In this document: positions 2,385-52,856 of the stretch, piece by piece | Position numbering within the stretch: position 1 is the first letter of the stretch | How the letters are laid out: each line of letters opens with the position of its first letter | Assembly (NCBI RefSeq): GCF_046105845.1 | Contig: NZ_CP151004.1 | Direction: 5' to 3' (one strand) | From: Escherichia coli | Lineage (GTDB): Bacteria > Pseudomonadota > Gammaproteobacteria > Enterobacterales > Enterobacteriaceae | DNA length: 64,000 nt | Program-made: the position numbers and the translations under genes | Notes under the pieces: model-generated | Told to the model about the DNA's origin: nothing | The model's database searches: none | Seen by the model: the letters and a program-made list of their open reading frames with translations, nothing else

Positions 2385-3110
2385 TCAGAGTCTGAAGTCT
2401 TCCCCAAGGTATACACGCTTAACGTGTTCGTCTTGTAAGATTTCTGTAGGCGTGCCGTGGGCGATCAAATGCCCCTGACTGACGATATAAGCGCGTTCAC
2501 AAACCGCCAGTGTTTCACGCACGTTGTGGTCAGTGATCAGTACGCCCAAGCCGCTGTCGCGCAGGTGTTCAATGATGCGTTTAATGTCGATAACCGAGAT
2601 CGGGTCAACCCCGGCAAACGGTTCGTCGAGCAGAATAAATTTCGGATTCGCAGCCAGTGCGCGGGCAATTTCTACACGGCGACGTTCACCCCCGGAGAGT
2701 GACTGCCCCATGCTGTCACGCAGGTGCTCAATGTGAAACTCTTCCATCAGCTCGTTCGCGCGGTCTTCACGTTGTTCAGCAGACAAGTCGTCACGAATTT
2801 GCAGTACCGCCATCAGGTTATCGTAAACGCTGAGGCGACGGAAAATGGAGGCTTCCTGTGGCAGATAGCCGATACCGCGGCGCGCGCGTGCATGCAGAGG
2901 CAGCAGACTGATATCGTCATCATCAATAATGATGTTGCCCGCATCGCGCGGCACAATGCCTACAACCATGTAGAAAGTGGTGGTCTTACCGGCACCGTTT
3001 GGCCCCAGCAGACCGACAATTTCCCCGGAGTTGACGGTCAGGCTGACGTCTTCTACCACGCGACGGCCTTTATAGGCTTTTGCAAGGTTCTTTGCAGTTA
3101 ATGTTGCCAT
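2385..3110 (-). CDS. lptB: LPS export ABC transporter ATPase, 241 aa
   Basis: [24 protein letters not shown]; Walker [10 protein letters not shown]; ABC signature LSGGERRR. Confidence 0.95.
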
Positions 3111-3116
3111 AACGAA

Positions 3117-3674
3117 TTAATTACCCTTCTTCTGTGCCGGGGTCTGGCCTTTGTTGTTTTTGTCCTGCAGCTGCGACGGCACCAGAACGGTGGTTACGCG
3201 CTTACCTTTGTCGCTGAAAGCCTGCATTTTCTGCTCTTTCACCAGGTAAGTGATCTTATCGCCCTTAATGTTGCTATCGACCTGCTGCAGATAAGCATTA
3301 CCCGTCAGAACGACAAAATCTTTTGCCAGTTCGTAGTGCATCTGGGAAGCGTGACCTTCAACGGGTTTACCATTGTCCTGCATCTGGTAGAACGTTGCCG
3401 GTTTACCGTAGCCGTCAATCACTTCTTTACCTTGTTCGCCGCCCGGACGGGTAACGACCACTTTGTCGGCATTAATTTTGATGGTGCCCTGGGTGACGAT
3501 GACATTACCGGTAAAGGTAACCACGTTGCCTTGCATATCAAGAGATTGCTGGTCCGATTCAATGTGGATCGGCTGATCAGTGTCTCCGGTTACGGCAAAT
3601 GCCGGAATGCTGGCGGCCAGAAGTGAGCTGGCAAGCACAAGATTAAGGCTGAGTTTGTTTGTTTTGAATTTCAT
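3117..3674 (-). CDS. lptA: Periplasmic LPS transport protein LptA
   Basis: ORF 3117..3695 with conserved start MKFKTNKLSLNLVLASSLLAASIPAFA (signal peptide) 7 codons in; ATG at 3672-3674 on minus strand. Confidence 0.93.
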   Translation of the reverse strand: MKFKTNKLSLNLVLASSLLAASIPAFAVTGDTDQPIHIESDQQSLDMQGNVVTFTGNVIVTQGTIKINADKVVVTRPGGEQGKEVIDGYGKPATFYQMQDNGKPVEGHASQMHYELAKDFVVLTGNAYLQQVDSNIKGDKITYLVKEQKMQAFSDKGKRVTTVLVPSQLQDKNNKGQTPAQKKGN

Positions 3675-4801: not shown

Positions 4802-5788
4802 TTACACTACGCCTGCACGCAGTAAATCATGCATATGTAACACACCGAGTAAATGGTCGCCATCGGCAACCATCACGGAGGTGATATGGCGGGACTGCAT
4901 TAAGTTCAGTGCCTCAACGGCCAGAATGCCAGGGCGCACGCGTATTCCCCCCGGCGTCATAACATCGGCAATACTTAACTGACGAACATCCACGCCCATA
5001 TCGAAGACACGGCGTAAATCACCGTCGGTAAAGATGCCTTCAATCATCATATTGTCATCGCAAATGACAGTCATACCAAGATTTTTGCGGGTAACTTCCA
5101 GCAATGCGTCACGCAGACTGGCCGTTTTCTTAACATGCGGGATCTCATCGCCCGTATGCATAATATCGTTTACGCGCAGCAGAAGTTTACGACCCAGTGC
5201 GCCGCCTGGGTGTGAGAGCGCAAAATCTTCAGCAGTAAAGCCGCGTGCTTTTAACAGAGCGACAGCGAGGGCATCGCCCATAACCAGCGTGGCGGTGGTG
5301 CTGCTGGTCGGTGCCAGCCCTAACGGACAGGCTTCTTTCGCTACTTTAACACACAGATGCACATCTGCGGCGCGCGCCATGCTGCTCTCCGGGCGACCGG
5401 TGATGCAGATTAACGGTACGTGAAGACGCTTAAGCACTGGAATTAAGGCCGTGATTTCGCTGGATTCACCTGAGTTAGAGATAGCAATCACCACATCCTG
5501 TGGGGTGACCATGCCTAAATCACCATGCGCGGCTTCACCAGGATGGACGAAAAATGAAGGTGTACCGGTGCTGGCAAACGTTGCCGCCATTTTGCGCCCA
5601 ATATGCCCCGATTTCCCCATCCCCATGACGACAACTTTCCCTTTACACCAGAACATCTTTTCACAGGCAAGCGTGAAATTCTGATTGATGTATTGATCAA
5701 GCTCCGCCAGGCATTCACGTTCAATCGCCAGGACTTCTTTACCTGCTTGCTGAAAGTCAAAACCCGGTTGTAACTCTACGTGCGACAT
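4802..5788 (-). CDS. kdsD: D-arabinose 5-phosphate isomerase (SIS + CBS domains)
   Basis: ORF 4802..5809; conserved start MSHVELQPGFDFQQAGKEVL 7 codons in; ATG at 5786-5788 on minus strand. Confidence 0.93.
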   Translation of the reverse strand: MSHVELQPGFDFQQAGKEVLAIERECLAELDQYINQNFTLACEKMFWCKGKVVVMGMGKSGHIGRKMAATFASTGTPSFFVHPGEAAHGDLGMVTPQDVVIAISNSGESSEITALIPVLKRLHVPLICITGRPESSMARAADVHLCVKVAKEACPLGLAPTSSTTATLVMGDALAVALLKARGFTAEDFALSHPGGALGRKLLLRVNDIMHTGDEIPHVKKTASLRDALLEVTRKNLGMTVICDDNMMIEGIFTDGDLRRVFDMGVDVRQLSIADVMTPGGIRVRPGILAVEALNLMQSRHITSVMVADGDHLLGVLHMHDLLRAGVV

Positions 5789-5801
5789 AATGCGTTTCCA
5801 G

Positions 5802-6779
5802 TTATTCAACGAGTATTGGCGATAACCAGTACAACATCGCCAGCCATACGATAAATCCGCCAGTTAATAATACCCCTACACCACGGCCCGATTGCGGGGA
5901 GCGCCGCCAGCACAGCAACGCAAAAATAATGCTCACCAGCAACATCACGCTGTAGTCACGACTGTACGCCAGTGGATCAATCTCTCCTGGCGTTATCAGC
6001 GCGGGTAAACCCAACACGATGACAATATTAAAAATGTTTGCGCCAATGATATTTCCGACCGCAATGTCGTTTTCACCTTTGCGAACCCCCGCTATTGCGG
6101 TTGCCAGTTCCGGCAGGCTGGTTCCGATAGCAATTGCCGTCAGACCCATCGTCAACTCGCTGATGGCAAAGTAATTCGCCAGCACCGTGGCGTTATCAAC
6201 CACCATCCGCGTGGCCACTGGCATGATGATAAGCGCAATGCCGAGCCATAAAAACGCGACGGGCAATCCGCCGTCACGCGGCAGCTCTGCAAGCTGCTCT
6301 CTGGTCAGGCTGTCAGTCCCCTGACGTTCAGCCTGACGTGCAAGTTTAACAATGAACAGCAGCCATAGCACAGCCAGAAAGAGGAGAAAGATACCATCGC
6401 TGCGACTAAGTTGTCCGTCATAGAGTACGGAACCGGCCACCACGCTGACCAACAACATTAAGGGTAATTCACGGCGTAGAACATCAGAATGGACGGTAAA
6501 AGGACGAACCAGCGCAGCCAGACCGAGGATCAGCAATATATTGATAATGTTTGAGCCGAGGGCTGTACCAACGGCTAAATTGCGTTGTTCGTGCAGTGAC
6601 GCGGCAAGCGAGACGATGATTTCTGGTAACGATGTACCAATACTGACCACCGTCATGCCGATGATCAGCGGCGGGATGCCAAAGGTTCGGCAAAGAATGG
6701 ACGCGGCAAAAACCAGGCGGTCGGCACTGTAAACGACCAAAAGTAAACCAACAATTAACAGTGCCGTAGCTAAAAGCAT
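5802..6779 (-). CDS. yrbG: Na+/Ca2+ exchanger family inner-membrane protein, 325 aa
   Basis: MLLATALLIVGLLLVVYSADRLVFAASILCRTFGIPPLIIGMTVVSIGTSLPE; duplicated GTSLPE motifs. Confidence 0.9.
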   Translation of the reverse strand: MLLATALLIVGLLLVVYSADRLVFAASILCRTFGIPPLIIGMTVVSIGTSLPEIIVSLAASLHEQRNLAVGTALGSNIINILLILGLAALVRPFTVHSDVLRRELPLMLLVSVVAGSVLYDGQLSRSDGIFLLFLAVLWLLFIVKLARQAERQGTDSLTREQLAELPRDGGLPVAFLWLGIALIIMPVATRMVVDNATVLANYFAISELTMGLTAIAIGTSLPELATAIAGVRKGENDIAVGNIIGANIFNIVIVLGLPALITPGEIDPLAYSRDYSVMLLVSIIFALLCWRRSPQSGRGVGVLLTGGFIVWLAMLYWLSPILVE

Positions 6780-12145: not shown

Positions 12146-12339
12146 CTTTCCTCACTCCTTAAGTTAGTCGCTTTCATTCAGAACACTTCTTCTGTCGAGC
12201 ATCACTATACTCCTGATGGCCTATTGTTCTAAAAAGTTCCTGTAAAGAGTGTGAATATTCAGAATATATAAAGATACATACACTGGTTTTTCAGGCGTTA
12301 TTGCGCTGAATAAGTGTTTTTATGGAACATATTGGAATC

Positions 12340-12364
12340 ATCCCGCGCACTGCGCGGGATGAGG
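12340..12364 (-). terminator. Perfect palindrome just downstream of the ispB stop; possible terminator or REP-like hairpin
   Basis: catcccgcgcactgcgcgggatg palindrome about 10 bp past ispB 3' end; no clean U-tract. Confidence 0.35.
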
Positions 12365-12373
12365 GGGAGGGGA

Positions 12374-49281: not shown

Positions 49282-50031
<750 letters not shown>

Positions 50032-50103
50032 TTATTCCCAAGAATTGATAGTGAGCGTAATATTCACGCGCTCAATTATCATAACTTATTCCTGGGGAAT
50101 GCT

Positions 50104-51144
50104 ATGACTGGTCAGTCTTCATCTCAGGCGGCAACGCCCATTCAGTGGTGGAAACCCGCGCTTTTCTTTCTCGTTGTCATTGCTGGTCTCTGGTATGTGA
50201 AATGGCAACCTTACTACGGCAAAGCGTTTACTGCTGCCGAAACCCACAGTATCGGTAAATCTATCCTTGCGCAGGCGGATGCTAATCCGTGGCAGGCGGC
50301 GTTGGATTACGCGATGATCTATTTCCTCGCGGTATGGAAAGCGGCGGTGCTGGGCGTACTGCTCGGGTCGTTGATTCAGGTGCTGATTCCGCGTGACTGG
50401 TTGCTGCGTACGCTTGGGCAATCGCGCTTTCGCGGCACGCTGCTGGGAACGCTGTTTTCGCTGCCGGGCATGATGTGTACCTGCTGTGCGGCTCCGGTCG
50501 CGGCGGGAATGCGTCGCCAACAGGTATCGATGGGCGGGGCGCTGGCATTCTGGATGGGGAATCCGTTGTTAAACCCGGCGACGCTGGTGTTTATGGGGTT
50601 TGTCCTCGGCTGGGGGTTTGCGGCGATTCGTCTGGTGGCGGGGCTGGTGATGGTGTTGCTGATTGCGACGCTGGTGCAAAAATGGGTACGTGAAACACCG
50701 CTAACGCAGGCACCGGTCGAAATTGACATACCGGAAGCGCAGGGCGGATTTTTTAGCCGCTGGGGCAGGGCGCTATGGACGCTTTTCTGGAGTACGATCC
50801 CGGTTTATATCCTTGCCGTACTGGTGTTGGGTGCCGCTCGCGTCTGGTTATTCCCCCATGCTGATGGTGCTGTCGATAACAGCCTGATGTGGGTGATTGC
50901 GATGGCGGTAGCGGGATGCTTGTTTGTCATTCCAACGGCAGCAGAAATTCCAATTGTACAAACGATGATGCTGGCAGGCATGGGAACCGCTCCGGCGCTG
51001 GCATTGTTGATGACGCTCCCGGCGGTGAGTTTGCCGTCACTGATTATGCTGCGCAAAGCGTTCCCGGCGAAAGCCTTATGGCTGACGGGGGCGATGGTGG
51101 CAGTGTCAGGTGTGATTGTCGGCGGGTTGGCGCTGTTGGCCTAA
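50104..51144 (+). CDS. yraQ: Predicted permease, 346 aa
   Basis: MTGQSSSQAATPIQWWKPALFFLVVIAGLWYVKWQPYYGK; multi-pass membrane protein with Cys cluster GMMCTCCAAP. Confidence 0.88.
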   Translation: MTGQSSSQAATPIQWWKPALFFLVVIAGLWYVKWQPYYGKAFTAAETHSIGKSILAQADANPWQAALDYAMIYFLAVWKAAVLGVLLGSLIQVLIPRDWLLRTLGQSRFRGTLLGTLFSLPGMMCTCCAAPVAAGMRRQQVSMGGALAFWMGNPLLNPATLVFMGFVLGWGFAAIRLVAGLVMVLLIATLVQKWVRETPLTQAPVEIDIPEAQGGFFSRWGRALWTLFWSTIPVYILAVLVLGAARVWLFPHADGAVDNSLMWVIAMAVAGCLFVIPTAAEIPIVQTMMLAGMGTAPALALLMTLPAVSLPSLIMLRKAFPAKALWLTGAMVAVSGVIVGGLALLA

Positions 51145-51178
51145 GATGTTGGATGCTCCTGAATACAGCACTGGACGG

Positions 51179-51215
51179 TCCCCTCTCCCCTTTGGGGAGA
51201 GGGTTAGGGTGAGGG
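51179..51215. repeat. GC-rich perfect hairpin plus canonical G-quadruplex motif between convergent yraQ and dolP
   Basis: ccctctcccc ttt ggggagaggg (10-bp perfect stem) then GGGG-aga-GGG-tta-GGG-tga-GGGG on the + strand; no U-tract. Confidence 0.6.
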
Positions 51216-51265
51216 GAACAGGTCGGCTAAGGTGTGAATATTTACTTCAACGACCGATCAATGGC

Positions 51266-51841
51266 TTATTTAATAAACGTAAACGCCGTGGTTACCCGCT
51301 TCACGCCGCTTACCCGGCTGGCAATATCTGCCGCCGCTTTCGCTTCACGTTCAGTCACTAGCCCCATCAGGAACACTTCACCGTTTTCGGTGGTCACTTT
51401 CACGTTGGACGATTTCACCAGGTCGCTGGTTAAGAGCTGCGAACGCACTTTGGTGGTGATCCACGTATCGTTAGACGCTTCGCCCAGACCAATCGGCTGG
51501 CCCTGACGAATCTCGTTATACACTTCGTTGGCACCGTCTACGCCCATAGCAATCTGTTTGGCGCGAGCCGAAAGTTCAGCGTTTGGTGACTGCCCAACCA
51601 GCAGCACTTTGCCCTGATACGCCGTGACATTAATACGGGTTTCTTTCTTAATCTGTTCGTCTTTCGACAATGCGCTGTTTACGCGCACTTCCAGGGTACC
51701 ATCGTCCACCTGGGTGCCGACACTGCGTGGGTCAGTTGCGGCTTTGGTACCTACAGCAGCGGTACCCACTACGGCAGCGGCAACACAACCTTGCAACAGC
51801 AGCGCGGAAAGAAGGACTGCGATTGGCGATAATGCCTTCAT
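51266..51841 (-). CDS. dolP: Dual-BON-domain outer-membrane lipoprotein DolP (YraP), 191 aa
   Basis: MKALSPIAVLLSALLLQGCVAAAVVGTAAVGTKAATDPRSVGTQVDDGTLEVRVNSAL (lipobox LQGC). Confidence 0.93.
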   Translation of the reverse strand: MKALSPIAVLLSALLLQGCVAAAVVGTAAVGTKAATDPRSVGTQVDDGTLEVRVNSALSKDEQIKKETRINVTAYQGKVLLVGQSPNAELSARAKQIAMGVDGANEVYNEIRQGQPIGLGEASNDTWITTKVRSQLLTSDLVKSSNVKVTTENGEVFLMGLVTEREAKAAADIASRVSGVKRVTTAFTFIK

Positions 51842-51850
51842 GTATTCTCC

Positions 51851-52441
51851 TTAAACATCCTGGTGAGGGAAAAGCGTGTTATCGATCAGATCGCACAGGC
51901 AATTTACCGTCAGCATATGCATTTCCTGAATGCGAGCACTACGATGCGAAGGAATGCGGATCTCCACATCCTGTGGCCCTAACAAACCTGCAAGTTCACC
52001 GCCGTCATAGCCGGTTAATGCCACAATGGTCATATCACGCGTAACGGCAGCTTCTACCGCTTTTACAATATCGCGGCTGTTGCCACGGGTGGAAATGGCT
52101 AACAATACATCCCCCGCATGACCCAGCGCCCGCACCTGTTTTGCATACACTTCATCATGTAAGCGATCGTTGGCAATCGCCGTTAAGACAACATTATCAG
52201 TATTTAGTGCAATGGCAGGTAAGCTGGGCCGCTCCGTTTCGAAACGGTTGATCATGCTGGCAGCAAAATGCTGTGCATTGGCAGCGGAAGTTCCATTACC
52301 ACAACAGAGGATTTTGTTGCCATTGAGCAGAGACTGAACCAGCGTCATGGCTGCACGGGAGATGGCATCCGGAAGCGCCTCTGCCGCCGCAATTTGAGTT
52401 TGAATGCTTTCAGTGAAGCAAGCTTTAATTCTTTCTTGCAC
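51851..52441 (-). CDS. diaA: DnaA initiator-associating protein DiaA (SIS domain), 196 aa
   Basis: [63 protein letters not shown]. Confidence 0.95.
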
Positions 52442-52460
52442 GCTAATCCTTAAACCTTAA

Positions 52461-52856
52461 TTATGAGTGGTCATTAAAGGCATCCTTAATCCACTCAACC
52501 TCATTCCCGGTGAAGGCTACCACATCGAACCGGCAATCCACAGTATCAAAACTCCCATTATGACGCGCGAGCCACAAGCGGGCAGTCTGTAATAATTTGT
52601 GTTGTTTGCTGCGGGTCACACTGGCTGCCGCGCCGCCATAAAGCGCAGAGCGGCGGTAACGCACCTCAACAAAAACGGTGGTCCGGCCTTCACGCATTAT
52701 CAGATCGATCTCGCCGCCACGCTCGTTCACGTTAGCGGCGATAAACCGCAGTCCTTTGCCTTCCAGCCAGCGACGCGCTTGTGCTTCCCACGCATCGCCG
52801 GTCTGTTTGGTGGTTAACTGGCGGGGACTACCTGACCTTGTTGGTACTGTAGCCAT
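52461..52856 (-). CDS. yraN: UPF0102 family protein YraN, 131 aa
   Basis: [57 protein letters not shown]; start lies about 43 nt inside the lpoA 3' end. Confidence 0.88.

Follow-up and report, generated by a model that had tools for sequence, protein, structure and literature searches.

A type A BoxC repeat between the convergent genes yraQ and dolP of Escherichia coli

The element in the yraQ-dolP gap and its relatives

Within the window, i.e. the whole 64-kb stretch of DNA analysed here, the genes yraQ (a permease of 346 aa; 50104-51144, + strand) and dolP (191 aa; 51266-51841, - strand) are convergent, as an earlier sequence-only reading had seen, with yraQ ending at 51144 and dolP at 51266. 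The gap of 121 bp between them (51145-51265) consists of a strictly intergenic element, located between the two stop codons, and of flanks of 36 nt on the left and 49 nt on the right. The core of the element is the 36-mer CCCTCTCCCC-TTT-GGGGAGAGGG-TTA-GGGTGAGGGG at 51181-51216 (+), a motif for which shuffled sequences gave a chance expectation of zero matches. It had been described earlier as a hairpin joined to a G-run motif at 51179-51215; both parts are real, and the positions were off by 1-2 nt. On the + strand the core comprises the C-rich arm CCCTCTCCCC (51181-51190), a hairpin loop, TTT, read from the sequence (51191-51193), the purine arm GGGGAGAGGG (51194-51203), which forms the 3' arm of the hairpin and also provides G-runs 1 and 2, a second loop, TTA (51204-51206), which is the marker of type A (HPG1) copies (PMC4666352, PMC5100583), and a third strand, GGGTGAGGGG (51207-51216), which is a mirror repeat of the purine arm and holds G-runs 3 and 4. 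The yraQ mRNA reads the element as G-rich, the dolP mRNA as C-rich (CCCCUCACCCUAACCCUCUCCCCAAAGGGGAGAGGGGACC).

A hairpin scan returned a perfect 10-bp stem between 51181-51190 and 51194-51203 with TTT as loop. Perfect stems of at least 10 bp gave 12 overlapping register hits in the 64-kb window, corresponding to 9 distinct hairpins, this one included. A regular expression for canonical G3+N1-7 motifs (four runs of at least three G, loops of 1-7 nt) matched twice in the same 64 kb, once at 51194-51216 (+), where the sequence GGGG-AGA-GGG-TTA-GGG-TGA-GGGG repeats G3+N3 four times, and once at 5597-5624 (-), where the motif GGGGATGGGGAAATCGGGGCATATTGGG lies within a 335-aa ORF (4802-5809, -). 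A further perfect hairpin of 10-11 bp, TCATCCCGCG CACTG CGCGGGATGA, followed by the G-rich tail GGATGAGGGGGAGGGG, is located at 12338-12372 (+); its likeness to the yraQ-dolP element is superficial, with 3 mismatches to the 16-mer, and it was rejected as a relative. An Rfam scan of 50000-52500 yielded only whalefall-1 with 15 bits versus a gathering score of 37 (E = 2), which we dismissed as a chance hit.

What lies in the gap is a well-preserved BoxC repeat of type A, present as a single copy; the repeat also goes by the names PIT, TMECO or HPG1. BoxC was described by Bergler (1992) and Bachellier (1999) and PIT by Hoyne and Maher (2000, 2002), and according to the account given in PMC4666352 the TMECO sequences are the same as both. 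The core is identical to K-12 TMECO copies 7, 11 and 15 (Table 1 of PMC4666352) at 35 of its 36 positions and differs by one base from CCCTCGCCCCTTTGGGGAGAGGGTTAGGGTGAGGGG, the commonest among the 23 copies listed for K-12 (Holder 2015, PMC4666352). The deviation is a T for G in the C-rich arm, which reads mostly CCCTCGCCCC in K-12, where most type A copies carry the G, and the T results in a perfect proximal hairpin, free of the 'mm' mismatch. The 36-mer agrees with the core consensus CCCTC(G/T)CCCC-N3-GGGGAGAGGG-TTA-GGGTGAGGGG. Aligning the window copy with nine BoxC copies fetched from K-12 (alignment A2) resulted in 33 invariant columns, spanning C.GTCCCCTC to GGGTGAGGGG, and in weaker similarity that continues for ~10 nt on each side, from ~51166 to 51222 overall, with shared flanks of the form ..GGAC(G/A)GTC on the 5' side and AAC(A)G on the 3' side. 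In blastn-short searches against nine K-12 copies gap positions 26-78, i.e. 51170-51222 (~53 bp), were matched with 92-96% identity. The invariant columns and the extended similarity identify the window copy as a bona fide type A BoxC. From both comparisons the whole unit, whose G-rich strand is the + strand, extends over 51166-51222 (~53-57 bp), and since the 36-nt and 49-nt flanks are single-copy, the repeated unit reaches only a few bases beyond the core. A unit size of 56 bp, taken from the literature, and 32 copies are listed for BoxC by Petrillo (2008, PMC2267715).

Of the 5426 complete E. coli genomes searched by blastn with the 121-bp gap, 5425 contain the family, and the median number of places per genome is 18. 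A genome-wide search, for copies of a 37-mer, had been proposed in the sequence-only reading, and the result confirms the suspicion voiced there of a dispersed repeat family, the identity of which with BoxC had escaped notice. BoxC is a non-coding intergenic repeat of ~55 bp with ~20 scattered copies per E. coli genome, and besides core and TTA loop the window copy shares with the type A elements the ~53-bp flank similarity and the intergenic, multi-copy nature. No second copy was found elsewhere in the 64-kb window. The yraQ-dolP locus is not among the 23 copies of K-12, where 7 of the 19 BoxC-holding gaps are convergent, as is the yraQ-dolP gap, and where the RefSeq record carries no repeat annotation at the BoxC sites. 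When 51166-51222 was compared with collections of plasmids and phages, BoxC-like 50-mers with 85-92% identity were observed in replicons of Azospirillum, Rhizobium, Sinorhizobium, Aeromonas, Pantoea and Klebsiella, at up to 18-20 places per replicon in the plasmid collection, whereas phages were nearly free of them (two Campylobacter phage records, 3 places each). Such a wide taxonomic reach is striking for a non-coding sequence of 50 bp.

The core could also serve as a binding site for a protein, either a RAYT-like mobilising enzyme or a nucleoid protein, with the three GGG(A/T)GAGGG 9-mers, one inverted and two direct, as putative recognition units. Such a site would fit the conservation, which exceeds the needs of a hairpin and includes the third strand and ~5 nt of flank, the recurrence of type A and type B copies as inverted pairs, and the wide taxonomic spread. 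Yet no protein is known as a candidate. For REP elements a family of mobilising enzymes (RAYT) and protein partners have been described; we know of neither for BoxC. We rate this explanation as very improbable.

Hairpin, triplex and G-quadruplex

Hairpin and G-quadruplex (G4) both use the tract 51194-51203 and exclude each other by sequence, as had been pointed out in the sequence-only reading. Calculations with ViennaRNA gave -21.1 kcal/mol for the perfect hairpin of the window copy versus -12.6 kcal/mol for the isolated G4 (gquad, -12.64), so that the energy model clearly favours the hairpin, by ~8 kcal/mol. The BoxC hairpin is the sole strong structure predicted in the gap (-21.1 and -21.7 kcal/mol). 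The common 'mm' copies of K-12, which carry CCCTCGCCCC, behave differently in the same calculations: their RNA of minimum free energy pairs the C-rich arm with the third G-strand, including one G.U pair, at -23.7 kcal/mol, i.e. it uses the third rather than the middle strand, implying two competing hairpins in those copies, whereas the window copy with CCCTCTCCCC is locked into the proximal one.

The idea that the G-tract toggles between hairpin and G4 was put forward in the sequence-only reading and, before it, by Kaplan (2016), who found the motif by G4 prediction (HPG1, GGGAGAGGGTTAGGGTGAGGG, and also HPG2), remarked on the C-rich stretch 5' of it and advanced the concept of a 'G-quadruplex-Hairpin-Duplex switch' (PMC5100583). 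In this scheme K+ versus Mg2+, or a chaperone, would flip the tract and thereby modulate transcription or termination; as both states have Tm values above 70 °C, a chaperone would be needed. The scheme draws on the canonical motif matched by the regular expression and on CD spectra, which for the HPG2 oligonucleotide differ between K+ and Li+/Mg2+ (PMC5100583). The 18 imino signals recorded by NMR for the same oligonucleotide family, in contrast, fit an intrastrand purine-motif triplex, and G4 was rejected in vitro (Holder 2015, PMC4666352), so that the literature on G4 folding of BoxC-type sequences is divided between a K+-dependent form seen by CD and a triplex seen by NMR. Moreover, the strand goes into duplex whenever its complement is there, the hairpin of the window copy is predicted to be the better fold by the energy difference given above, and among the RNAs only the yraQ-sense transcript could form the G4. 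The sole K-12 RNA 3' end in a yraQ-like orientation lies in the TTA loop, and this RNA thus lacks G-runs 3 and 4. Hence the motif that had been noticed is present, the G4 fold is not established, and we regard a G4/hairpin switch at this locus as extremely improbable.

The three blocks of the window copy also have the sequence make-up of a class II purine-motif intrastrand triplex, as triads are allowed at all 10 third-strand positions (8 G.G-C, 1 A.A-T, 1 T.A-T). In an H-DNA-like reading at the DNA level the G-rich strand would fold back twice upon strand separation, causing polymerase stalling and local rearrangement. Type A oligonucleotides are indeed stable by NMR and CD with Tm values of 74-82 °C (PMC4666352), primer extension shows a polymerase stop, TM loci are rearranged more than control loci, and the yraQ-dolP locus is itself a site of allele replacement. 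DMS probing in vivo, however, revealed an ordinary duplex and no non-B structure at TMECO (Holder 2015, PMC4666352), neither polymerases nor conjugation were affected by PIT elements in vivo, according to the summary in PMC4666352, and the variability may be mere repeat turnover. A DNA-level triplex is therefore, in our view, a quite improbable basis for the local effect of the element.

Published work already covers the element and its family, the triplex potential and the idea of a hairpin/G4 switch, the last being neither new nor favoured by the existing biophysics. As a copy of a known repeat, BoxC, for which even the rivalry of hairpin and quadruplex has already been described, the find is an ordinary one.

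RNA 3' ends at BoxC copies and the proposed hairpin cap

Like an intrinsic terminator, BoxC is a G+C-rich hairpin that can lie between convergent genes, and a true bidirectional terminator occupies this very position in other genera. It differs in that the U-tract is absent on both strands: the stem continues into TTAGGGTG on the + strand and into GACCGTCC on the - strand, and neither side carries a T-run. A promoter and terminator scan of 50900-51500 returned 0 terminator-like sites and no promoter. The BoxC of the yraQ-dolP gap thus lacks the combination of G+C-rich hairpin and U-tract that defines an intrinsic terminator, and the sequence-only reading was right to deny it that role. The denial agrees with K-12 data, where the RNA end at the lldD BoxC has an intrinsic-terminator score of only 1.3 (threshold 3), and with the report of Hoyne and Maher (2002), in which, according to the account in PMC4666352, PIT elements altered neither promoter nor terminator activity and left RNA polymerase unaffected.

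We inspected the Term-seq table of strain MG1655 (Adams 2021, PMC7815308), which lists strings of 61 nt with the RNA 3' end at index 51, and found curated 3' ends 3-12 nt beyond BoxC hairpins at six K-12 loci. These ends are located at 164636 (+) in the hrpB-mrcB gap, at 624567 (-) in the fepB-entC gap, at 632098 (+) in the cstA-ybdD gap, at 3781065 (+), the primary 3' end of lldD, at 4231270 (-), antisense to rluF, and at 847200 (-), intercistronic between glnH and glnP, with an RNA terminus inside the TTA loop. For ~25 copies fewer than 0.2 coincidences would be expected, a rough estimate that assumes ~2300 table rows as judged from file size. Sister copies of the window element thus mark RNA 3' ends. 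Where a genuine terminator adjoins the BoxC, as at gcvP and ppiC/ilvC, the 3' end is found at the terminator and not at the BoxC, indicating that BoxC acts only by default. Five of the BoxC ends belong to the C-rich and one to the G-rich reading. We did not retain this apparent strand asymmetry, which lacks support since the expressed genes in the G-reading, gcvP and ppiC, have their own upstream terminators. The fepB-entC gap contains an inverted BoxC pair, and the end at 624567 lies just beyond it. A second end in this gap, at NC_000913.3 624680 (-), with 100,000-240,000 Term-seq reads, lies 1-4 nt upstream of the pair and is not accounted for by the hairpin-cap model described below.

Termination by Rho has been mapped close to these sites. 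The lldD BoxC end lies within a significant Rho region, two of the six BoxC-associated ends are followed by Rho termination regions 430 nt and 180 nt downstream, and K-12 dolP has a Rho region at 3297309 (+) with a score of 8.5 (p = 2e-17), 325 nt past the stop codon and inside antisense yraQ, demonstrating that read-through beyond dolP is terminated by Rho in K-12. The link to Rho that had been suspected from sequence is thereby borne out, by the K-12 regions near BoxC ends and dolP. These data fit the model of Peters and of Dar and Sorek (2018, PMC6061677), in which PNPase and RNase II shorten transcripts terminated by Rho until they meet a stem-loop that lacks a U-tract, a part that REP has long been known to play. 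The protective 3' stem-loops described by Peters (2012) and by Dar and Sorek (2018) combine a stable stem devoid of a U-tract, RNA ends a few nt beyond it and Rho termination further downstream; the pattern of an end just past a U-less stem is the one seen at the six K-12 BoxC copies. The class is defined by function and not by sequence, and the window copy would belong to it by analogy with those copies.

On balance, the likeliest local effect of the U-tract-less BoxC hairpin is that it would cap the Rho-terminated transcripts of dolP and yraQ, as REP does. Transcription from either side would produce the 10-bp G+C hairpin of ~-21 kcal/mol, and RNA polymerase, not being released there, would enter the antisense strand of the convergent gene, where Rho would stop it. 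The 3'-to-5' exonucleases PNPase and RNase II would then remove the tail as far as the foot of the hairpin, which would set and shield the mature 3' ends of both mRNAs. From the other BoxC copies the caps would be expected at ~51169-51177 (-) for dolP and at ~51204-51207 (+) for yraQ, the former being the predicted steady-state dolP 3' end, 4-12 nt beyond the stem, by analogy with the Term-seq ends 164636, 624567, 632098, 3781065 and 4231270. This role would be that of REP elements and of generic stem-loops on Rho-dependent transcripts. The null result for PIT elements, as related in PMC4666352, speaks against the cap model. As any stable hairpin would serve, the model also fails to explain why the third strand is invariant and why the repeat is found even on Azospirillum and Rhizobium replicons, and the conservation of the third strand probably reflects recognition or spread of the repeat.

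Alleles of the gap in E. coli and other genera

The whole BoxC gap allele occurs in 428 of the 5426 E. coli genomes (~8%), among them an ST648 strain and FDAARGOS_497, and the 36-nt left and 49-nt right flanks are confined to those same 428 genomes. In most of the other genomes (~5000) REP/BIME stands between yraQ and dolP instead of BoxC; K-12, ATCC 11775, E28 and JML285, for instance, have one or two REP/BIME units in the gap. The REP consensus is GCC(G/T)GATG.CG(G/A)CG...CTTATC(C/A)GGCCTAC; the window gap lacks it, and it occurs in the corresponding gap of K-12, ATCC 11775, E28 and JML285 and in E. albertii. REP/BIME resemble BoxC in being short G+C-rich intergenic palindromes downstream of genes and in occupying the same gap in other E. 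coli, whereas the sequences are unrelated and the third G-rich block is a feature of BoxC only.

Comparison of the window with the REP allele revealed that homology is lost in the last yraQ codons and regained within the dolP stop codon. The last yraQ codon (51142-51144) encodes Ala in the window and Phe or Val elsewhere, and the dolP stop codon is TAA in the window (51266-51268) and TAG in K-12; as both differ, the replaced block extends into both reading frames. Judged from these alignments, BoxC reached the yraQ-dolP gap by a swap of the whole gap allele and not by simple insertion into a K-12-type gap, which we rejected since the entire gap differs from the REP allele; for the same reason neither a target-site duplication nor a clean insertion boundary is definable. 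That the unique flanks are themselves repeats or an import from another genus was also rejected, as they are single-copy in E. coli and had no match in the orthologous loci of 80 other species. The modest value of the locus is that of a natural experiment, in which the same gene pair has BoxC, REP/BIME or a classical terminator between its stop codons, and isogenic gap alleles would be a clean test bed for the effect of BoxC on mRNA 3' ends, antisense read-through and genome stability.

The comparison set comprised the dolP loci of these 80 species (L005-L084; 440 kb). BoxC-like copies are found directly downstream of dolP in seven of them, namely in two strains labelled Enterobacter with yraQ as neighbour (L017, L019), in Phytobacter massiliensis (L031), in three loci with a common 641-aa neighbour (L041, L043 and L047, the last being Cedecea neteri) and in a Serratia (L055). 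With a profile of the E. coli copies we obtained hits with E < 0.1 in 7 loci (10 copies), all within the post-dolP gap (positions 3075-3260 of the loci), and none outside this gap in the 440 kb. The copy nearest dolP is mostly read C-rich by the dolP mRNA, as in the window. Other species have REP after dolP, and repeat-free loci have a bidirectional terminator hairpin with A/T runs (e.g. Kosakonia L007, L056, L080 and Hafnia L082). In the sequences compared, the slot behind dolP is thus always occupied by some strong hairpin, be it a terminator, REP or BoxC.

A broader reading, which we offer tentatively and with considerable doubt, is that the post-dolP gap might be a long-lived slot that requires a strong hairpin and in which BoxC, REP/BIME and bidirectional terminators have repeatedly been interchanged across Enterobacterales. 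BoxC might then be a REP-like, selected 3'-end cap for Rho-terminated transcripts, whose third strand would be what a mobilising or copying activity recognises and would not have a G4 or triplex function. Alternatively, BoxC may be a selfish or neutral repeat that came to lie between these convergent genes, either by landing there or together with a recombined gap allele, and that does no harm in a gap free of promoters, the RNA 3' ends being incidental. The polymorphism of the locus, with 428 genomes carrying BoxC and ~5000 REP, agrees with this, as do the lack of association of BoxC with gene function or ORF distance (Holder 2015, PMC4666352), the unusual variability of BoxC loci among strains and, in the form in which PMC4666352 relates it, the null result of Hoyne and Maher for function. 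A purely neutral origin is harder to reconcile with a core that is nearly invariant across copies and genera, with a dolP gap that always holds a strong hairpin, and with the fact that every profile hit in the 440 kb of orthologous loci falls into this single gap; we consider it unlikely. Within what is otherwise known of BoxC, the alternation of REP/BIME, BoxC and terminators after dolP is a small detail that is possibly unreported. E. albertii NBRC 107761 (L006) has a tandem array of four BIME units behind dolP (3076-3540) and retains of yraQ only a short piece of the 3' end.
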